Below, in pieces: positions 1 through 7,424 of a stretch of DNA of 7,424 nt (positions are counted from its first letter, which is position 1; each line of letters starts with the position of its first letter). A program made the translations under genes and the position numbers. The notes below the pieces were generated by a model that was given only the letters and a program-made list of their open reading frames with translations, was not told the DNA's origin and ran no database searches. Source of the DNA: a virus (lineage: Duplodnaviria > Heunggongvirae > Uroviricota > Caudoviricetes). Where the stretch lies: positions 1-7,424 of the IMG/VR virus record IMGVR_UViG_2645728091_000002. The stretch is one strand, 5' to 3'.

Positions 1-95
1 GTCGTCATGTGGGATGGCTGGTTCAGACTTCAGGATATGGTTGAGGGTTACCTGGTGATGAAGTCTCTTGATCAGGAGATCTGATCAAGAGACAG
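1..95 (+). mobile_element. Right end of an IS50-like (IS4 family) insertion sequence: transposase C-terminal fragment (1..84, continues upstream of the window) plus 19-bp terminal inverted repeat (77..95)
   Basis: Frame 1 of + strand reads VVMWDGWFRLQDMVEGYLVMKSLDQEI-stop (TGA 82-84), which resembles the Tn5 transposase C-terminus as I recall it (…WEGWEALQSKLDGFLAAKDLMAQGIKI). The reverse complement of 77-95 is CTGTCTCTTGATCAGATCT, matching the 19-bp IS50 inside-end sequence. The protein tail differs from IS50, so this is a relative, not IS50 itself. Lambda-O-like sequence begins abruptly at 96. Confidence 0.7.
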
Positions 96-458
96 CTCGT
101 TTTGAGGGATGCACCATTCTGAGATGTTTTTATTTGGTCCAAACATGCCGCCTTGCTGCTTGATAATATTCATTCTGACGAGCTCTAACTTGGCTTCATT
201 GCATCGTTTGACAGGTAACTTTGTAATCTCACTAAGTTGAGAATCGGTGATTCTGTCCATTGGTTTATTCCACCCATAGGTTTTACGCAGAATGGCAAGC
301 AGCACTTTAAACTGTCGCTTGGTCAGATCTGCGCCTGAATAAGCCTCAAGCAGCATATTTGATAGTCTGGCGTAACCATCATCGAGATCTGCCACATTAC
401 GCTCCTGTTCGGCAAAGTTACCTCTGCCGAAGTTGAGTATTTTTGCTGTATTTGTCAT
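72..458 (-). pseudogene. O: Lambda-type replication initiator O, truncated after codon 121 by the IS insertion; fused to 7 IS-derived codons (LSLDQIS) before a stop
   Basis: Translation MTNTAKILNFGRGNF…NISEWCIPQNE matches the lambda O N-terminal domain as I recall it. Likely start is ATG at 456-458 with GGAG 6 nt upstream; the 143-aa ORF in the track is an upstream over-extension. O-derived sequence ends at 96, inside ATCCCTCAAAACGAG (minus strand, 96-110), the left half of a lambda ori iteron (TCCCTC-AAAAC-GAGGGA). Full-length O is about 299 aa. Confidence 0.85.
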
Positions 459-492
459 AATTACTCCTGTGGATTGATCCAGTCTTTCTACA

Positions 493-771
493 TCAGGCCT
501 CAAAACTGTTGCAGCAGTCTTGAGGCTTTTCTTTTGTCAGCACCATGGCTACTTTCTTTGCCAGCTCCGCTAATTCCTCGTCTTCAACACCCCACTCCAG
601 CACAGCCAGAAGCATGGCCATCTTTGGGATAAAGCTGTCTTTCCATCGCGAAATTTGCGATTCATTAATCCCTAATGCATCAGCAACCTTTCGCTGACCA
701 CGTACAGCAATTCGATTTAGGATGTTGCTTGTAATTGCATTCGCTTTCTTGCGAGTACTTGTAAGTTGCAT
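493..771 (-). CDS. c1: cII-family transcriptional activator, P22 C1-type (92 aa)
   Basis: Sequence MQLTSTRKKANAIT…QISRWK…IPKM…LLAVLEWGV… has the cII/C1 family hallmarks (SQISRWK helix-turn-helix region, LLAVLEWGV). It sits between cro and O as in lambdoid phages. I chose the internal ATG (769-771) over the track's ATG at 858 because the longer form would run through nutR boxB and the 92-aa form has the family length. Confidence 0.8.
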   Translation of the reverse strand: MQLTSTRKKANAITSNILNRIAVRGQRKVADALGINESQISRWKDSFIPKMAMLLAVLEWGVEDEELAELAKKVAMVLTKEKPQDCCNSFEA

Positions 772-828
772 ATGTAAGTATTTCCTTAACAAATAAGAAG
801 TTATACGCACCAACTGATGCGCGTTGTA

Positions 829-872
829 TTCCCGCATTTCGGCGGGAATGAGGACCATGACTGTTAAAGAGC
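829..872 (-). promoter_or_regulatory. nutR: boxA (862-872, GCTCTTTAACA on minus strand) and boxB hairpin (829-848, TTCCCGCCGAAATGCGGGAA on minus strand)
   Basis: boxA matches the boxA consensus (CGCTCTT-A type). boxB is a stem CCCGC/GCGGG around a purine-rich loop. The same boxA (11/11) and boxB core recur at nutL (1960-2000) with near-identical spacing. Confidence 0.7.
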
Positions 873-879
873 AATTTGC

Positions 880-1065
880 TTATGCCGCTTTGCGATAAGC
901 ACTTTCTTGATACTTCAGGGCGCCAGCTGTAACGACTTCCAGTCGATAGGCGTCTTTCTCTGGGATGACTTCCTTCCACTGAGAGACTGCTGCATCGCTA
1001 ATGCCTAACGCTTTAGCTACCGCACGCTGGGTTCCGAAGTGGTCGATAACATCTTTCTTGTACAT
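880..1065 (-). CDS. cro: Cro repressor, P22-type (61 aa)
   Basis: MYKKDVIDHFGTQRAVAKALGISDAAVSQWKEVIPEKDAYRLEVVTAGALKYQESAYRKAA matches P22 Cro as I recall it. GGAG lies 7 nt upstream of the ATG on the minus strand. It is divergent from the repressor gene across an operator region. Confidence 0.9.
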   Translation of the reverse strand: MYKKDVIDHFGTQRAVAKALGISDAAVSQWKEVIPEKDAYRLEVVTAGALKYQESAYRKAA

Positions 1066-1145
1066 AGACTCGCTCCGAAATTAAAGAACACTTAAATCAT
1101 CTGTCAAAGGAATCTTAAGTCAAGTTTATTTAAGATATCTTAACT
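1066..1145. promoter_or_regulatory. OR operator region with divergent pR (minus strand, towards cro) and pRM (plus strand, towards c2)
   Basis: Contains ATTTAAG/CTTAAAT-type half-sites: aattaaagaacacttaaat (1079-1097) and the 14-bp palindrome ttaagatatcttaa (1130-1143). Minus-strand -35 TTGACA is the complement of 1102-1107, with an A/T-rich -10 candidate about 17 bp downstream. The c2 ATG at 1146 has essentially no leader or Shine-Dalgarno, as in the lambda cI/pRM arrangement. Confidence 0.7.
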
Positions 1146-1796
1146 ATGAATACACAACTGATGGGTGAGCGTATTCGCGCTCGCAGAAAAGAACTCAAGA
1201 TTAGGCAGGCTGCCCTTGGCAAGATGGTTGGCGTGTCTAATGTTGCTATTTCCCAATGGGAGCGTTCTGAAACTGAGCCCAATGGCGAAAACCTATTGGC
1301 CTTAGCCAAGGCTTTGCAGTGTTCCCCTGATTACTTGTTGAAAGGAGAAGATAGTCTTTCAAACATTGCCTATCACAGCAGGCATGATCCAAGAGGTTCG
1401 TATCCTCTAATTAGTTGGGTAAGCGCAGGATGTTGGATGGAAGCTGTAGAGCCATATCATAAGCGTGCAATAGATAACTGGTACGATACAACCGTAGATT
1501 GTTCAGAAGATTCGTTTTGGCTGGACGTAAAAGGTGATTCGATGACGGCTCCAGCCGGTCTTAGCATCCCTGAAGGGATGATAATACTCGTCGATCCTGA
1601 AGTAGAACCTCGTAATGGGAAGCTGGTAGTGGCAAAGCTCGAAGGAGAAAACGAGGCAACTTTCAAGAAGTTAGTTATTGATGCTGGCAGGAGGTTTCTA
1701 AAACCACTTAACCCACAATATCCGATGATTGAGATCAACGGGAACTGCAAAATCATCGGTGTAGTTGTCGATGCAAAAATAGCAAACCTTCCATAA
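1146..1796 (+). CDS. c2: Prophage repressor, P22 C2-type (216 aa), LexA-like S24 autopeptidase C-terminal domain
   Basis: MNTQLMGERIRARRKELKIRQAALGKMVGVSNVAISQWERSE… is an HTH_3-type N-terminal domain and matches P22 C2 as I recall it. It has an Ala94-Gly95 cleavage site (VSAGCW), a GDSM serine motif (S132) and FKKL lysine (K174/K175), consistent with RecA-stimulated self-cleavage. Confidence 0.92.
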   Translation: MNTQLMGERIRARRKELKIRQAALGKMVGVSNVAISQWERSETEPNGENLLALAKALQCSPDYLLKGEDSLSNIAYHSRHDPRGSYPLISWVSAGCWMEAVEPYHKRAIDNWYDTTVDCSEDSFWLDVKGDSMTAPAGLSIPEGMIILVDPEVEPRNGKLVVAKLEGENEATFKKLVIDAGRRFLKPLNPQYPMIEINGNCKIIGVVVDAKIANLP

Positions 1797-1820
1797 GGGG
1801 CATTCGCCCCTTTTTTCTTT
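1797..1820 (+). terminator. Rho-independent terminator immediately after c2
   Basis: GGGGC(1797-1801)-ATTC-GCCCC(1806-1810) stem-loop followed by TTTTTTCTTT. Confidence 0.75.
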
Positions 1821-1854
1821 CCTTTAAAAATCAAAGCAAAACTTAAGCCCTGCA

Positions 1855-1925
1855 ATAAAATTTAAGTTTTCTTCAAAAACACTCTTGACCACAAATTAAA
1901 GAAATCTTAAATTTAAGTCATCAGC
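1855..1925 (+). promoter_or_regulatory. OL operators and pL promoter (leftward early promoter, + strand in this window)
   Basis: -35 TTGACC (1885-1890), 17-bp spacer, -10 TAAATT (1908-1913). Operator-like repeat aattaaagaaatcttaaat (1894-1912) matches the OR copy at 17/19 positions. Further ATTTAAG half-sites at 1860-1866 and 1911-1917. Confidence 0.7.
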
Positions 1926-1959
1926 AGGACGCTGGTAGCCAAACGGAACAGATTGGCAG

Positions 1960-2000
1960 GCTCTTTAACATTGATGGGATTGTCCCGCCGAAATGCGGGA
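1960..2000 (+). promoter_or_regulatory. nutL: boxA GCTCTTTAACA (1960-1970) and boxB hairpin TCCCGCCGAAATGCGGGA (1983-2000)
   Basis: Same boxA and boxB as nutR on the opposite strand. Located between pL and the N-like gene, as expected for an N-utilisation site. Confidence 0.7.
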
Positions 2001-2114
2001 ACCAAAGAGTAGTTGGCTTTGGGGTGATGTGAAGTGCAGCCGCGCGACAGCATCAGGGAATTAACCTCCCACCCCCCGTCACGTCACCGCTAAAGTCAAT
2101 CATCGGAGGTCAAC

Positions 2115-2414
2115 ATGACAGTAGTCATTACATATCTGGCTGACGATAACGCCAGAAATCGCCGCAGAGCACGCAGACAGGCTCAACGTGAACAGGCAAT
2201 GCAAGAGCAGCGACTGGCGCGAAAGATTGCGCTAAAGCTCTCTGGTTGCGTCAGAGCAGATAAAGCAGCATCACTCGGAAGCCTTCGCTGCCAGAAGGCA
2301 GAAGAAGTCGAGCGTAAACAGAACCGTATTTACTACAGCAAGCCACGCAGTGAAATGGGTGTGACTTGTGTTGGTCGCCAGAAAATGAAATTAGGCAGCA
2401 AACCACTTATTTGA
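2115..2414 (+). CDS. N: N-family transcription antiterminator (99 aa) with an atypical arginine-rich motif
   Basis: C-terminal two-thirds (…LARKIALKLSGCVRADKAASLGSLRC…ERKQNRIYYSKPRSEMGVTCVGRQKMKLGSKPLI) parallels the lambda N C-terminus (ERKNQRTWYSKPGERGITCSGRQKIKGKSIPLI) and the phage 21 N body as I recall them. The N-terminal ARM is DNARNRRRARRQAQREQ. GGAGG lies 5 nt upstream of the ATG. It is the first gene downstream of pL/nutL. Confidence 0.85.
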   Translation: MTVVITYLADDNARNRRRARRQAQREQAMQEQRLARKIALKLSGCVRADKAASLGSLRCQKAEEVERKQNRIYYSKPRSEMGVTCVGRQKMKLGSKPLI

Positions 2415-2422
2415 GGTGATAT

Positions 2423-2872
2423 ATGGAAGAACAGGCAAATAAGATTCTCATAGAACTATTGCAAAAAGCCAGTAATGGAATAGACGCGGCTGTCTCATTT
2501 AGCCAGGCACAGATTCCTGATGTTGTTCATCAGTTGCTGCTATGGAATATGGTTGATAGCCTGATTAAAACATTAATAGCCATTTTAACAATCCCGCTGG
2601 TTTTCTGGTTTATGAAGAAACAGTACCAAAAAGTTGAAATTGGTAAGTTCGATGATGAAGGATGGTCATGGGATAAGGGGAAGACTAAATACAAACCGAC
2701 TATGATTTGGGAAAGTAACGGTGAGATTAGTTTTCTAATCTTACCATTAGCTGCAGTTTTTGTTCTGTGGGTAAGTTTTATTATTGCTGTAGTAACCAAT
2801 ATGACATGGTTAGAAATTTTGCTGGCTCCAAAGCTTTACCTTATCGAATATGCAGCATCATTGGTTAAGTAA
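2423..2872 (+). CDS. Small membrane protein (149 aa, two predicted TM helices), function unknown; occupies the position where lambdoid phages carry sieB-type superinfection-exclusion genes
   Basis: GAGGTGA Shine-Dalgarno overlaps the N stop codon, with the ATG 8 nt after N, so it is translationally coupled. Hydrophobic segments LIKTLIAILTIPLVFWFM and ISFLILPLAAVFVLWVSFIIAVV. Visibly more A+T-rich than the flanking N and Red genes. I do not recognise the sequence as a named protein. Confidence 0.75.
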   Translation: MEEQANKILIELLQKASNGIDAAVSFSQAQIPDVVHQLLLWNMVDSLIKTLIAILTIPLVFWFMKKQYQKVEIGKFDDEGWSWDKGKTKYKPTMIWESNGEISFLILPLAAVFVLWVSFIIAVVTNMTWLEILLAPKLYLIEYAASLVK

Positions 2873-2876
2873 TTTC

Positions 2877-2902
2877 AGGCCGCATAGTCGGCCTTTATTT
2901 TT
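2877..2902 (+). terminator. Rho-independent terminator after the membrane-protein gene (tL1-like position)
   Basis: AGGCCG(2877-2882)-CATAGT-CGGCCT(2889-2894) stem followed by TTATTTTT. Confidence 0.7.
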
Positions 2903-2931
2903 GGCACTAACAACAGAATAAACACTGCACT

Positions 2932-2959
2932 GTGTATTCATTCCAACGAGTGAATACAC
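2932..2959 (+). other. Stable stem-loop (11-bp stem with one G·U, 6-nt loop) in a non-coding segment; not followed by a U-tract
   Basis: GTGTATTCATT (2932-2942) pairs with AGTGAATACAC (2949-2959); loop CCAACG. No convincing ORF or promoter around it. Confidence 0.5.
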
Positions 2960-3021
2960 GGAGCAATGTCGCTCGTAACTAAACAGGAGCCGACTTGTTC
3001 TGATTATTGGAAATCTTCTTT

Positions 3022-3048
3022 GCCCTCCAGTGTGAGGGCGATTTTTTA
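3022..3048 (+). terminator. Rho-independent terminator just upstream of the ea10-like gene
   Basis: GCCCTC(3022-3027)-CAGTGT-GAGGGC(3034-3039) stem followed by GATTTTTTA. Confidence 0.7.
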
Positions 3049-3067
3049 TCTATGAGGATATGAATAG

Positions 3068-3436
3068 ATGTCAAACATCAAAAAATACATCATTGATTAC
3101 GACTGGAAAGCATCAATAGAAATTGAAATCGACCATGACGTAATGACAGAGGAAAAACTTCACCAGATTAATAATTTCTGGTCAGACTCTGAATACCGAC
3201 TCAATAAACACGGCTCTGTATTAAATGCTGTATTAATCATGCTGGCGCAACATGCTCTGCTTATAGCAATTTCAAGCGACTTAAATGCATATGGTGTTGT
3301 GTGTGAGTTCGACTGGAATGATGGAAATGGTCAGGAAGGATGGCCTCCAATGGATGGTAGCGAAGGAATAAGAATTACCGATATCGATACATCAGGAATA
3401 TTTGATTCAGATGATATGACTATCAAGGCCGCCTGA
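3068..3436 (+). CDS. ea10: Acidic 122-aa early-left-operon protein; probable counterpart of lambda Ea10
   Basis: GAGGA lies 9 nt upstream of the ATG. The gene sits immediately upstream of cIII and has the 122-aa length I associate with lambda Ea10. The assignment rests on position and size; I do not reliably recall the Ea10 sequence. The C-terminal third is strongly acidic (DWNDGNGQEGWPPMDGSEG…DSDDM). Confidence 0.6.
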   Translation: MSNIKKYIIDYDWKASIEIEIDHDVMTEEKLHQINNFWSDSEYRLNKHGSVLNAVLIMLAQHALLIAISSDLNAYGVVCEFDWNDGNGQEGWPPMDGSEGIRITDIDTSGIFDSDDMTIKAA

Positions 3437-3460
3437 GTGCGGTTTTACCGCATACCAATA

Positions 3461-3482
3461 ACGCTTCACTCGAGGCGTTTTT
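3461..3482 (+). terminator. Putative terminator or RNA structure upstream of the cIII ribosome-binding site
   Basis: ACGCTTC(3461-3467)-ACTC-GAGGCGT(3472-3478), a 7-bp stem with one G·U, followed by TTTTTCGTT. Could also be part of the cIII leader structures known to modulate cIII translation in lambda. Confidence 0.45.
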
Positions 3483-3508
3483 CGTTATGTATAAATAAGG
3501 AGCACACC

Positions 3509-3673
3509 ATGCAATATGCCATTGCAGGGTGGCCTGTTGCTGGCTGCCCTTCCGAATCTTTACTTGAACGAATCACCCGTAAATTACGTGACGGATGGAA
3601 ACGCCTTATCGACATACTTAATCAGCCAGGAGTCCCAAAGAATGGATCAAACACTTATGGCTATCCAGACTAA
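3509..3673 (+). CDS. cIII: CIII (54 aa), inhibitor of FtsH-mediated CII degradation
   Basis: [54 protein letters not shown] matches lambda CIII as I recall it. AAGGAG lies 6 nt upstream of the ATG at 3509. The 78-aa ORF in the track is an in-frame upstream over-extension. Confidence 0.92.
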   Translation: MQYAIAGWPVAGCPSESLLERITRKLRDGWKRLIDILNQPGVPKNGSNTYGYPD

Positions 3674-3785
3674 ATTCACTATCGCCACTTTTATTGGCGA
3701 TGAAAAGATGTTTCGTGAAGCCGTCGACGCTTATAAAAAATGGATATTAATGCTGAAACTGAGATCAAGCAAAAGCATTCACTAA
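3642..3785 (+). CDS. kil: Kil (47 aa), host cell-division inhibitor
   Basis: [47 protein letters not shown] matches lambda Kil as I recall it. AGGAG lies 9 nt upstream. It overlaps the 3' end of cIII in another frame, as in lambda. The 89-aa track ORF is an over-extension. Confidence 0.85.
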
Positions 3786-4156
3786 CCCCCTTTCCTGTTT
3801 TCCTAATCAGCCTGGCATTTCGCGGGCGATATTTTCACAGCTATTTCAGGAGTTCAGCCATGAACGCTTATTACATTCAGGATCGTCTTGAGGCTCAGAG
3901 CTGGGCGCGTCACTACCAGCAGATCGCCCGTGAAGAGAAAGAGGCAGAACTGGCAGACGACATGGAAAAAGGCCTGCCCCAGCACCTGTTTGAATCGCTA
4001 TGCATCGATCATTTGCAACGCCACGGGGCCAGCAAAAAAGCCATTACCCGTGCGTTTGATGACGATGTTGAGTTTCAGGAGCGCATGGCAGAACACATCC
4101 GGTACATGGTTGAAACCATTGCTCACCACCAGGTTGATATTGATTCAGAGGTATAA
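3740..4156 (+). CDS. gam: Gam (138 aa), RecBCD inhibitor
   Basis: [80 protein letters not shown]… is near-identical to lambda Gam as I recall it. The internal Met (MNAYYIQ…) corresponds to the short Gam form. Confidence 0.93.
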
Positions 4157-4161
4157 AACGG

Positions 4162-4947
4162 ATGAGTACAGCACTCGCAACGCTGGCTGGGAAGCTGGCT
4201 GAACGAGTCGGCATGGATTCTGTCGACCCACAGGAACTGATCACCACTCTTCGCCAGACGGCATTTAAAGGTGATGCCAGCGATGCGCAGTTCATCGCAT
4301 TGCTGATCGTCGCCAACCAGTACGGTCTTAATCCGTGGACGAAAGAAATTTACGCCTTCCCTGATAAGCAGAACGGCATCGTTCCGGTGGTGGGCGTTGA
4401 TGGCTGGTCCCGCATCATCAACGAAAACCAGCAGTTTGACGGCATGGACTTTGAACAGGACAACGAATCCTGCACATGCCGGATTTACCGCAAAGACCGC
4501 AATCATCCGATCTGCGTTACCGAGTGGATGGATGAATGCCGCCGCGAACCATTCAAAACCCGCGAAGGCAGAGAAATCACCGGACCGTGGCAGTCGCATC
4601 CCAAACGGATGTTACGGCATAAAGCCATGATTCAGTGTGCCCGTCTGGCCTTCGGATTTGCTGGTATCTATGACAAGGATGAAGCCGAGCGCATTGTCGA
4701 AAATACTGCATACACTGCAGAACGTCAGCCGGAACGCGACATCACTCCGGTTAACGATGAAACCATGCAGGAGATTAACACTCTGCTGATCGCCCTGGAT
4801 AAAACATGGGATGACGACTTATTGCCGCTCTGTTCCCTGATATTTCGCCGCGACATTCGCGCATCGTCAGAACTGACACAGGCCGAAGCAGTGAAAGCTC
4901 TTGGATTCCTGAAACAGAAAGCCACTGAGCAGAAGGTGGCAGCATGA
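4162..4947 (+). CDS. bet: Bet (261 aa), Red-beta single-strand annealing protein
   Basis: [100 protein letters not shown]… matches lambda Bet in sequence and length. Confidence 0.95.
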
Positions 4948-5624
4948 CACCGGACATTATCCTGCAGCGTACCGGGATCGACGTGAGAGCTGTCGAACAG
5001 GGGGATGATGCATGGCACAAATTACGGCTCGGCGTCATCACCGCTTCAGAAGTTCACAACGTGATAGCAAAGCCCCGATCAGGAAAGAAGTGGCCTGACA
5101 TGAAAATGTCCTACTTCCACACCCTGCTAGCTGAGGTTTGCACCGGTGTGGCTCCGGAAGTTAACGCTAAAGCGCTGGCCTGGGGAAAACAGTACGAGAA
5201 CGACGCCAGAACCCTGTTTGAGTTCACTTCCGGCGTAAATGTTATTGAATCCCCGATCATCTATCGCGACGAAAGTATGCGCACCGCCTGCTCTCCCGAT
5301 GGTTTATGCAGTGACGGCAATGGCCTTGAGCTGAAATGCCCGTTTACCTCCCGGGATTTCATGAAATTCCGGCTCGGTGGTTTCGAGGCCATAAAGTCGG
5401 CTTACATGGCCCAGGTGCAGTACAGCATGTGGGTGACGCGAAAAGATGCCTGGTACTTTGCCAACTATGACCCGCGTATGAAGCGTGAAGGCCTGCATTA
5501 TGTCGTGATTGAGCGGAATGAAAAGTATATAGCGAGTTTTGACGAGATGGTGCCGGAGTTCATCGAAAAAATGGACGAGGCACTGGCTGAAATTGGTTTT
5601 GTATTTGGGGAGCAATGGCGATGA
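4944..5624 (+). CDS. exo: Exo (226 aa), Red-alpha 5'-3' exonuclease
   Basis: [94 protein letters not shown]… matches lambda Exo. The start overlaps the bet stop (ATGA), as in lambda. Confidence 0.95.
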
Positions 5625-5803
5625 AACATCCTCACGATAATATCCGCGTAGGCACGATCACTTTCGTCTACTCCGTTACGAAGCGAGGCTGGGTATTTCC
5701 CGGCCTTTCTGTTATCCGAAATCCACTGAAAGCACAGCGGCTGGCTGAGGAGATAAATAATAAACGGGGAGCTGTATGCACAAAGCATCTCCCGTTGAGT
5801 TAA
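5621..5803 (+). CDS. Small protein corresponding in position and size to lambda orf60a (60 aa)
   Basis: ATG overlaps the exo stop (ATGA at 5621-5624). 60 aa from [19 protein letters not shown]… An alternative start two codons upstream (5615) gives the 62-aa track ORF. Position immediately distal to exo as in lambda. Confidence 0.7.
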
Positions 5804-5967
5804 GAACGAGTATCGAGATGGCACATAGCCTCGCTCAAATTGGAGTCAGGTTTGTGCCAATACCAGTAGAAACAGACGAAGAATTTCATACGTTAGCCGC
5901 ATCCCTTTCACAAAAGCTGGAAATGATGGTGGCGAAAGCAGAAGCAGATGAGAGAGACCAGGTATGA
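5776..5967 (+). CDS. Small protein corresponding in position and size to lambda orf63 (63 aa)
   Basis: 63-aa [66 protein letters not shown], overlapping the end of the preceding gene as in the lambda orf60a/orf63 arrangement. Confidence 0.7.
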   Translation: MHKASPVELRTSIEMAHSLAQIGVRFVPIPVETDEEFHTLAASLSQKLEMMVAKAEADERDQV

Positions 5968-6043
5968 CAACCACTGAATGCATTTTTCTGGCAGCGGGCT
6001 TCATATTCTGTGTGCTTATGCTTGCCGACATGGGACTTGTTCA

Positions 6044-6259
6044 ATGACACCTCAGCAAGAAAACGCCCTTCGCAGTATTGCCCGTCAGGCTAATTCTGAA
6101 ATCAAAAAAGCCAGACAGCAGTTTCCGGATAAAAACGTCGATGACATTTGCCGTAGCGTACTGAAGAAGCACCGCGAAACGGTAACGCTGATGGGATTCA
6201 CACCGACTCATTTAAGCCTGGCGATCGGCATGTTAAACGGCGTCTTTAAGGAACGGTGA
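6044..6259 (+). CDS. Small basic protein (71 aa from this start), orf61-like position; start codon uncertain (alternative ATG at 5978 gives 93 aa)
   Basis: MTPQQENALRSIARQANSEIKKARQQFPDKNVDDICRSVLKKHRETVTLMGFTPTHLSLAIGMLNGVFKER. The ATG at 6044 overlaps the stop of a 27-aa upstream ORF (ATGA). Weak Shine-Dalgarno for either start. Confidence 0.6.
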   Translation: MTPQQENALRSIARQANSEIKKARQQFPDKNVDDICRSVLKKHRETVTLMGFTPTHLSLAIGMLNGVFKER

Positions 6260-6281
6260 GCATGAAAAACAAAATCATCAT

Positions 6282-6302
6282 GGAGCTACAGGCTCCTTTT
6301 TT
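6282..6302 (+). terminator. Rho-independent terminator in the distal pL operon
   Basis: GGAGC(6282-6286)-TACAG-GCTCC(6292-6296) followed by TTTTTTATTATT. Confidence 0.65.
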
Positions 6303-6357
6303 ATTATTCGCATTCACCCTCAAGCGTATTAACCAACAATTCAGGGATTAATGAAAG

Positions 6358-6579
6358 ATGGCAGACATCATTGATTCAGCATCAGAAATTGAAGAATTAC
6401 AGCGCAACACAGCAATAAAAATGCGCCGCCTGAACCACCAGGCTATATCTGCCACTCATTGTTGTGAGTGTGGCGATCCGATAGATGAACGAAGACGCTT
6501 GGCCGTTCAGGGTTGTCGGACTTGTGCAAGTTGCCAGGAGGATCTGGAACTTATCAGTAAACAGAGAGGTTCGAAGTGA
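6358..6579 (+). CDS. DksA/TraR-family C4 zinc-finger protein (73 aa), a probable RNA-polymerase secondary-channel binding regulator
   Basis: C-x2-C … C-x2-C motif (CCECGDPIDERRRLAVQGCRTCASC) and overall similarity to F-plasmid TraR (…CEACGNPIPEARRK…C..C) as I recall it. The 73-aa size is typical of phage TraR-like proteins. Confidence 0.8.
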   Translation: MADIIDSASEIEELQRNTAIKMRRLNHQAISATHCCECGDPIDERRRLAVQGCRTCASCQEDLELISKQRGSK

Positions 6580-6731
6580 GCGAAATTAACTAGAAGCCAA
6601 AGATAAAATCATCGCTGAGCAGGAGAAAATCGCTAACGGAGAAAAGACAGTAAGTCAGTATATGAAAACCGCATGATATCATCAGATAAAAATCGATCGT
6701 AAAGCGAAATATTAATACCAGAATAAACGAG

Positions 6732-6755
6732 TCGAGGTAAATTATATTACCTCGA
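6732..6755. terminator. Inverted repeat (9-bp arms, 6-bp spacer) between convergent genes; probable terminator for the minus-strand membrane-protein gene, possibly bidirectional
   Basis: TCGAGGTAA(6732-6740)-ATTATA-TTACCTCGA(6747-6755). On the minus strand the hairpin is followed by a T-rich run (complement of 6716-6731). It lies about 35 bp beyond the minus-gene stop at 6790-6792. Confidence 0.5.
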
Positions 6756-6789
6756 TAAATTAACTAAAACTTGCCCGCTATATACTATC

Positions 6790-7320
6790 TCATTCAGTAT
6801 CATCACGCGCGGTCTGTGCATATGTTACTACCGCACCTAATGTATTAATTTTCTTTTCAACATAGATAATATTATCGTACTCATAATTGCCATACGGATA
6901 GCAAATGCGAATATTCTCATGTAGATCGGGGTCATCCACCTCAGCTCCAGAACAACTTTTTGAACTACCGGAAGTATACCGATACGGTGCAACATAAGAC
7001 GATGTCTCTCCAGGCAAAAAATAAGTTAGTGTTGTAAGGGGTATAATCAGAAAAAATCCAGCAAATATGCACATCCCTGCATAAACCTTAAGGTATGCTG
7101 ACAGACTCTTCCAGCCGCTTTGTTTTACTATCCCCTTCTTAACCCAAAACAGAGATAACAGAAAAGCTATTCCCATGCTAAACAGAATGTAATAGTGGGA
7201 TATACTCTGATTAAGAAACGTGACCCTGTAAATATCTGCCCGCCACCAGAAGAAAAGGAAAATAAAGATCAGGCCTGAAACTGTCATGCAAATCAAATAA
7301 GGATACGAATCTTTTTTCAT
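6790..7320 (-). CDS. A+T-rich accessory (moron-like) membrane protein, 176 aa, three predicted TM helices plus a Cys-containing C-terminal soluble domain; function unknown
   Basis: Long uninterrupted ORF in strongly A+T-rich DNA, where chance ORFs are disfavoured. Lys-rich N-terminus MKKDSYPY followed by hydrophobic segments LICMTVSGLIFIFLFFWW, YYILFSMGIAFLLSLFWV and VYAGMCIFAGFFLIIPLTTLTYFL. Convergent with the pL operon. Its start codon is 9 bp from the IS10-type end. Confidence 0.7.
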   Translation of the reverse strand: MKKDSYPYLICMTVSGLIFIFLFFWWRADIYRVTFLNQSISHYYILFSMGIAFLLSLFWVKKGIVKQSGWKSLSAYLKVYAGMCIFAGFFLIIPLTTLTYFLPGETSSYVAPYRYTSGSSKSCSGAEVDDPDLHENIRICYPYGNYEYDNIIYVEKKINTLGAVVTYAQTARDDTE

Positions 7321-7328
7321 GTTTAGCG

Positions 7329-7424
7329 CTGATGAATCCCCTAATGATTTTTATCAAAATCATTAAGTTAAGGTAGATACACATCTTGTCATATGATCAA
7401 ATGGTTTCGCCAAAAATCAATAAT
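7329..7424 (+). mobile_element. Outside end of an IS10-type element (Tn10 family); element continues beyond the window, transposase gene expected on the + strand just past 7424
   Basis: CTGATGAATCCCCTAATGATTTTTATCAAAATCATTAAGTTAAGGTAGATACACATCTTGTCATATGATCAAATGGTTTCGCCAAAAATCAATAAT matches the IS10 outside-end sequence as I recall it, including the terminal CTGATGAATCCCC, the near-palindrome around AATGATTTT…AAAATCATT and the TTAAGTTAAGG IHF-site region. Flanking 9 bp TGTTTAGCG (7320-7328) resembles the IS10 target consensus NGCTNAGCN. Confidence 0.85.

Follow-up and report, generated by a model that had tools for sequence, protein, structure and literature searches.

A conserved 27-codon reading frame between orf63 and orf61 of lambdoid phages that probably encodes a small membrane peptide

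We have analyzed a stretch of 7,424 nucleotides (the window), positions 1 to 7,424 of the Caudoviricetes record IMGVR_UViG_2645728091_000002 of IMG/VR, and specifically an open reading frame (ORF) of 27 codons plus stop located at 5964-6047, which we call the mini-ORF. The window corresponds to the immunity-to-exo-xis part of a lambdoid phage, with the plus strand running in the direction of pL transcription, and among phage records it is closest to imm21-type lambda hybrids and to phage 21. All on the plus strand, we found gam (3740-4156), bet (4162-4947), exo (4944-5624), orf60a (ending at 5803) and orf63 (5776-5967), which codes for a DUF1382 protein of 63 residues (PHROG 292, E=3.6e-36) and whose orf63/DUF1382 label is also used for the homologues in lambda, 434 and Escherichia coli prophages. 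The mini-ORF follows, then orf61 proper (6044-6259, 71 residues beginning MTPQQENALRS), an ORF of 31 codons (6256-6351) and orf73 (6358-6579), a gene for a validated TraR homologue (PMC9239242).

The original prediction had described the mini-ORF as a hydrophobic frame chained to both neighbors, and its coordinates were confirmed. The ATG at 5964-5966 overlaps the orf63 stop TGA (5965-5967) as ATGA, the translation of the 27-codon frame is identical to MTTTECIFLAAGFIFCVLMLADMGLVQ, and its stop TGA (6045-6047) overlaps the ATG of orf61 (6044-6046), again as ATGA (6044-6047). A moderate Shine-Dalgarno-like stretch, GAGAGAG (5950-5956), is found 8-14 nucleotides 5' of the mini-ORF ATG, and the sole element of this kind before the orf61 start is a weak GGGA (6032-6035). 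The other start that had been pointed out, an ATG at 5978 in a different frame, also exists and opens an ORF of 93 residues sharing the stop at 6259; its first 22 codons (5978-6043) are a rival N-terminal extension of Orf61 that we judge non-coding in that frame. Predicted pairing to the 3' end of the 16S ribosomal RNA amounts to -5.6 kcal/mol for the mini-ORF, compared with -3.8 when the gene starts at 5978 and -3.9 when it starts at 6044. The gap of 76 nucleotides remains open in the mini-ORF frame in 29% of shuffles, and we estimate ourselves the chance of ATGA at both ends in the matching frame at about 1.5e-3. The comparative evidence carries more weight than these single-sequence odds.

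The ORF had been suspected to escape annotation and this proved to be the case in the curated records inspected (PGAP for E. coli prophages, the Center for Phage Technology for phage 434, and the record of mEp332), where 5968-6043 is left blank and orf61 starts at the equivalent of 6044. In phage 434 the Center for Phage Technology marks a ribosome-binding site at the GGGA of 6032-6035. The 93-residue version of orf61 from the 5978 ATG has been called in Phi24B (vb_24B_7c), VT2-Sakai (H0081) and 933W (L0070). By exact look-up, a few older E. coli GenBank records and one UniRef entry were found to contain the peptide under the name 'hypothetical protein'.

In order to follow the frame in relatives we gathered E. 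coli-type loci, 222 in all, among phage records and the viral contigs of IMG/VR, using as anchor a part of orf61 that does not belong to the mini-ORF. Disruption of the frame in close relatives had been put forward as the outcome that would speak against the gene; in 216 of these loci the frame is preserved together with its ATG and the two overlaps, and there are 25 distinct intact haplotypes. The haplotypes differ by 14 synonymous and 9 non-synonymous changes, a ratio of non-synonymous to synonymous polymorphism (pN/pS) of 0.19 with a binomial P=9e-5, in a test that counts alleles instead of events and ignores mutation bias. By mini-ORF codon position (1:2:3) the 23 changes are distributed 6:3:14. 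Read in either of the other sense frames, one of them that of the 5978 ATG, the same changes give a pN/pS of 0.95; among the sense frames, the bias to synonymous sites appears only in that of the mini-ORF. Codons 9-20, the core of the predicted helix, have 6 synonymous changes and none that is non-synonymous, all the replacements being located at the flanking codons 3, 5, 8, 21, 22 and 26; two further rare ones, C6S and A11G (positions 6 and 11), were found in deposited proteins. The crude pN/pS values over the same loci were 0.16 for the mini-ORF, 0.21 for orf73, 0.27 for orf61, 0.31 for orf60a and 0.57 for orf63, and by this comparison the constraint on the mini-ORF equals or exceeds that on its accepted neighbors. 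Some haplotypes have CAG in place of CAA at codon 27. This is synonymous for the mini-ORF, which keeps its glutamine, and gives orf61 a GTG start instead of ATG; both genes thereby stay intact and the overlap is retained as GTGA. Judging from the substitution pattern, the mini-ORF is under purifying selection as an amino-acid sequence. As an aside, orf63, whose protein has a structure solved by nuclear magnetic resonance, was the least constrained of the accepted genes (P=0.06), with many of its replacements close to the C-terminus.

Could the frame serve just as a relay, its translation delivering ribosomes to the weak orf61 start while the peptide is functionless and degraded? The ATGA overlap at each end and the weak Shine-Dalgarno match at 6044 fit with this, and the clades devoid of the mini-ORF couple orf61 directly to a methyltransferase by ATGA, indicating that coupling is evidently important. 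However, a relay needs just an open frame, yet the amino acids are constrained (pN/pS 0.16-0.19, with the invariant core and its 6 synonymous changes). Neither would it require hydrophobicity, and the unrelated Yersinia-type inserts at this junction, described below, are all hydrophobic single-helix peptides. We consider this explanation unlikely. A regulatory leader peptide or upstream ORF was rejected as well, since the weak amino-acid constraint expected from it is at odds with the pattern of the core.

The segment might alternatively be an untranslated, young insertion of about 80 nucleotides at a recombination-prone junction, too recent to have decayed. ATGACA is found at each end of the ATGA-bounded segment, 80 nucleotides apart, the segment is missing from most orf61 clades, and diversity among the E. 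coli copies is low (at least 90% identity). Against this, the 23 changes are enough to reveal a strong bias to synonymous sites, start, frame and overlaps are preserved in nearly all the loci, and over the same loci the neighboring 31-codon ORF shows what an unconstrained small frame looks like, with a pN/pS of 0.64 that is not significant. A young insertion is therefore, in our judgment, very unlikely. Less credible still is that the constraint comes from the opposite strand, by way of an antisense ORF of 61 residues (5846-6031), or from a non-coding RNA or regulatory element. The antisense frame does score, with 11 synonymous and 12 non-synonymous changes (pN/pS 0.29, P=0.004), but less strongly than the mini-ORF frame, and the sharing of third positions would produce some signal anyway. 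Besides, its ATG is lost in 9 loci, and in the Dam-type context described below the C-terminal two-thirds of this ORF are replaced and interrupted by stops. No promoter-like site was found nearby on the minus strand, the sole one (6332-6303) being no better than in shuffles. Rfam gave no match, and the fold of the RNA is less stable than that of shuffled sequences (z=+2.1).

The original prediction had also kept open that the downstream gene starts at 5978 and that the mini-ORF is coincidental. This start is the one annotated for the 93-residue Orf61 of Phi24B, 933W and VT2-Sakai, and in reference lambda the annotated start is farther 5'. The ATG is indeed present with its frame open to 6259, and the 22-residue extension is contained in several GenBank records and in the PHROG 303 profile. 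Moreover, in the prophage of Escherichia sp. E1V33 (locus L009, 1435-1716) a deletion of 14 nucleotides destroys the mini-ORF and leaves the ATG that is ATGA-coupled to an upstream gene of 355 residues in the orf61 frame, the one of 5978, generating a fusion of 93 residues. This frame is nonetheless neutral, with 14 of the 23 changes at its first codon position. Orf61 homologues from Klebsiella, Yersinia, Enterobacter, Erwinia and Vibrio phages (30-48% identity; the distant loci were collected by single-protein scans) all align from the methionine encoded at 6044, with M1 invariant in seven distant homologues and M1, T2 and P3 in the five enterobacterial ones. In the Klebsiella and Enterobacter phages examined an ATGA joins this start to the end of a methyltransferase gene, with no space for an extension, and the same overlap appears in about 190 of 234 further Klebsiella-/Enterobacter-type IMG/VR loci. 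The five E. coli-type loci in which orf61 has a different upstream gene and lacks the mini-ORF diverge in sequence up to a few bases 5' of 6044. The Shine-Dalgarno match of the 5978 ATG is the weakest of the three starts, and AlphaFold and RoseTTAFold place residues 1-23 of the 93-residue Orf61 differently (PMC8614690). The conservation of the 5978 ATG follows simply from its position across codons E5 and C6 of the mini-ORF. On these sequence comparisons the 5978 start is largely refuted, and we regard a coincidental mini-ORF as barely credible. A programmed -1 frameshift fusing the peptide to Orf61 was discarded too, as the mini-ORF frame lacks an X_XXY_YYZ slippery site and, in the window, a TGA at 5975-5977 interrupts the frame of orf61. 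With regard to names, the 'cell division protein ZapA' that PGAP gives to Orf61 is below the Pfam threshold (PF05164, 16.1 bits against 23.8, E=0.014), and some records call Orf61 a 'putative membrane protein'.

The mini-ORF is conserved in a second gene context. A Dam methyltransferase replaces orf63 in 25 loci, phage PhiR30_1 and some E. coli prophages, and there the homology to the window begins precisely at the mini-ORF ATG. The methyltransferase stop overlaps this ATG as ATGA, and a strong GGGAGG precedes it. Gene-like boundaries are thus seen on both sides, in the Dam context and in the five loci devoid of the mini-ORF, suggesting that it behaves as a separate module. In a wider set of junctions, GGAGGCNGC-ATGA recurs at the 3' ends of various upstream genes (Dam, other methyltransferases and the 355-residue protein, which ends in TEAA) in phages of E. 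coli, Klebsiella, Enterobacter and Yersinia type (L028 at ~890-904, L031 and L034 at ~887-904, and L248, L254 and L263 at ~100-215 nucleotides before position 1001). It could be both a ribosome-binding site and a recombination linker.

The mini-ORF sequence is widespread. Of 5,426 complete E. coli genomes, 3,142 (58%) contain it, with 4,255 places altogether and a maximum of five copies per genome; in 3,138 genomes the match covers at least 80% of the sequence, and all the copies have the identity mentioned above. Annotation was absent in every E. coli genome row inspected. The sequence is also present in 175 phage records, reference lambda included.

Different peptides occupy the same junction in Yersinia-type phages. 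In Yersinia phage vB_YenM_210.17 (L030, 802-897) an ORF of 31 codons, MKRKISDGAWFWIYLIGYTVAATLYIVSNAG, fills the gap of 95 nucleotides between a methyltransferase gene and orf61, with its ATG overlapping the methyltransferase stop. Altogether 36 related IMG/VR loci (L237-L272, ~790-1000) contain three unrelated families of single-helix peptides 5' of orf61, namely family A (MKRKISDGAWFWIYLIGYTVAATLYIVSNAG), family B (MDDLSFVMAYLDWILLIVGVGVALWLLWVKEW) and family C (MNQPKVTEILIGICFALFIICLVVYVVGDAMNGVSM), with 25-36 residues in most variants and mostly ending within a few bases of the orf61 start. Families C and B appear in tandem in several loci (e.g. L248). The in-frame pN/pS was 0.40 for family A and 0.35 for family B, against 0.55-1.8 out of frame. 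In locus L264 one peptide copy is broken by a stop. Homology of the E. coli peptide to family C was rejected (probability of 0.6% in profile comparison), and translated searches of the phage collection with families B and C gave no match. The orf61 clades without a gap have no such peptide ORF. Both the E. coli and the Yersinia-type peptides are therefore accessory cassettes at a shared junction, in many clades at GGAGGCNGC-ATGA, and not obligatory partners of Orf61. By our reading, all four families have a mid-helix glycine followed by a small residue within about four positions, a spacing that is weak evidence, drawn from sequence, of helix packing.

With at least four peptide families at this place, sometimes two in tandem, a bolder idea is that the junction 5' of orf61 is a dedicated slot in which E. 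coli- and Yersinia-type lambdoid phages swap unrelated single-helix micro-protein cassettes, chained to orf61. We put it forward tentatively and consider it rather improbable. If true, the micro-proteins would be a functional class working with Orf61, or in parallel to it, on a host membrane target. Some of the effects on lysis-lysogeny, host survival and envelope stress for which orf61 or the exo-xis region is now held responsible would then be due to them.

Regarding the product, MTTTECIFLAAGFIFCVLMLADMGLVQ has a hydrophobic core from C6 to A21, no basic residues and a net charge of -2. Its grand average of hydropathy (GRAVY) is 1.62, with 2.44 for the best window of 17 residues, and places it in the top 0.8% of the stop-free 27-mers from all six frames of the window. 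In size and hydrophobicity it falls within what is used to recognize single-helix membrane proteins of at most 50 residues.

We consider it likely that the mini-ORF (5964-6047) truly codes for a protein, as one of the genes in the early leftward (pL) operon of lambdoid phages, and that it acts by the relay and the membrane peptide proposed here. The real small membrane-type peptide gene suggested at the outset is supported by the substitution pattern and by the ATGA overlaps kept in the second gene context. ATGA junctions are sites of termination-reinitiation between overlapping genes. Ribosomes finishing orf63, or the Dam methyltransferase gene, would stop at the UGA overlapping the mini-ORF AUG and re-initiate there, assisted by the moderate Shine-Dalgarno-like stretch, and the second ATGA would pass them on to orf61, with its weak ribosome-binding site. 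From these features we infer translation and coupling. The product would be an uncharged-to-acidic hydrophobic peptide of 27 residues with one membrane-type helix (C6-A21) and a small-residue motif, G12xxxC16. From its composition, it most likely inserts in the inner membrane. How it acts is more speculative; it may bind a larger membrane protein or perturb the envelope early in infection or induction. During infection with a Phi24B derivative lacking the whole exo-xis region, the envelope-stress genes degP and htpX decreased (log2 -3.0 and -2.4) (PMC10789677), a hint of an envelope role that is circumstantial, the deleted region holding many genes.

Several observations weigh against this interpretation. 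The 16-residue core is short for a membrane span, and PHROGs and Pfam searches with the peptide gave no family and no homologue of known function (the top match was PHROG 21538, 'membrane protein', E=0.68). The selection test relies on just 23 changes, with the simplifications given above, and the antisense frame also scores. The mini-ORF is dispensable, as indicated by the E1V33 deletion and by the five E. coli-type loci that have orf61 without it, and the Klebsiella and Enterobacter clades have no such ORF at the junction. Finally, the ribosome profiling of lambda, as described in a review, provided for this region extra peptides of 7 and 31 residues, not one of 27 (PMC8614690). In lambda, though, the mini-ORF lies wholly within the annotated orf61, so that footprints on it would be credited to orf61.

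By its sequence, the predicted product belongs to a familiar class, the small, translationally coupled membrane peptides of phages and bacteria, and not to a new kind of system. Small single-helix inner-membrane proteins of enterobacteria, with at most 50 residues, were reportedly described by Hemm, Storz and colleagues; examples are KdpF, MgtS, AcrZ, CydX, PmrR and YohP. The paper of Hemm et al. from 2008 is among the references of PMC4195576. The mini-ORF resembles them in its 27 residues, in its one hydrophobic helix, in having been missed by standard annotation and in being recognizable by conservation together with a ribosome-binding site or translational coupling. By analogy, it likely shares their mode of action, the binding of a larger membrane protein. 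On the other hand, the peptide has no sequence similarity to any of the six, is phage-encoded within the pL early operon and has no topology-setting basic residue. As in other ATGA-coupled genes of phage early operons, there are overlaps at both ends and a weak downstream Shine-Dalgarno, and the overlap is kept when the upstream gene is swapped. Unlike the typical case, the middle link is only 27 codons long, which is why annotations have either shown an intergenic gap here or merged it into an orf61 with the wrong start.

Type I toxins such as Ibs, ShoB, DinQ, TisB and Hok are also very small hydrophobic helical peptides, of a length similar to that of the mini-ORF product. In contrast to them, the mini-ORF has no long leader and is located within a polycistronic operon, coupled to its neighbors. 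Neither strand near 5964-6047 revealed a promoter-like site, a weak negative as the scans used crude consensus sequences, and for an antisense RNA at 5964-6047 no Rfam match or stable RNA structure was found. With lambda Kil, CIII, Ea8.5, Orf73 and the exo-xis genes the mini-ORF shares the operon and the timing of expression, although their proteins are soluble, unlike the predicted membrane peptide. All these genes, the exo-xis ones having been investigated by the Wegrzyn and Donaldson groups (PMC8614690, PMC6213356), are non-essential accessories with a presumed role in adjusting host physiology and the choice between lysis and lysogeny.

In reference lambda the mini-ORF is intact at complement(30925..31008). 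Codon 4 is ACG in lambda and ACT in the window, a synonymous difference for the mini-ORF, but one that removes a TGA from the orf61 frame. The loss of this TGA led annotators to start lambda 'orf61' at 31024, inside orf63. Besides, lambda has seven A where the other phages have six (window 6104-6109), and its orf61 is frameshifted and truncated, the remaining 3' part persisting in another frame; in the K-12 lysogen, PGAP flags it as 'frameshifted' (pseudogene). Lambda 'orf61' (30839..31024; window 5948-6122) hence appears to be an annotation chimera. Its 5' end looks wrong, and the region more likely contains a separate gene of 27 codons at complement(30925..31008) and, after it, an orf61 from 30928 that is frameshifted in laboratory lambda. 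Of the 93-residue Orf61 used in structure modelling and in PHROG 303, 22 residues are probably not synthesized at all. Lambda DNA bearing the A7 frameshift was also found in assemblies of unrelated organisms, Shewanella, Bradyrhizobium, Paenibacillus, Kitasatospora, Leeuwenhoekiella and others (L010-L023, L025-L027), and looks like contamination from laboratory stocks.

The 27-residue peptide was absent from the exo-xis literature examined, a full-text literature search for its sequence returned no paper, and the mini-ORF is absent from the small-gene ribosome-profiling supplements of E. coli O157:H7 Sakai. The genes listed in this literature are orf60a, orf63, orf61, orf73 and ea22, plus the 7- and 31-residue peptides credited to ribosome profiling of lambda (PMC8614690). 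The published delta-orf61 mutants were made by swapping the annotated ORF for a scar (PMC6213356), and the swap removes the mini-ORF too, entirely in lambda and for 70 of its 84 bases in Phi24B. As a consequence, the effects of these mutants on lysogenization, host survival and adsorption are not assignable to Orf61 alone. Lambda is the reference temperate phage, and the mini-ORF sequence is present in more than half of the complete E. coli genomes, Shiga-toxin phages included. The mini-ORF matters mainly because it corrects the annotation and the genetics of a region on which much work has been done; what it adds to biology, one more predicted small membrane peptide of phages, is modest.

Two further features lie downstream. 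The 31-codon ORF (6256-6351; lambda complement(30620..30715), with an ATG start in lambda) is probably the 31-residue peptide of the ribosome profiling. Its GTG start overlaps the orf61 stop as GTGA, there are 29 codons from an ATG at 6262, and the records of phages 434 and mEp332 include it. A terminator-like hairpin (6282-6296) with a T-run after it lies inside this ORF. On the minus strand, 3' of orf73, an ORF of 176 residues with several hydrophobic segments (6790-7320) takes the place of lambda ea22 and is called a 'putative membrane protein' in 434 and mEp332.

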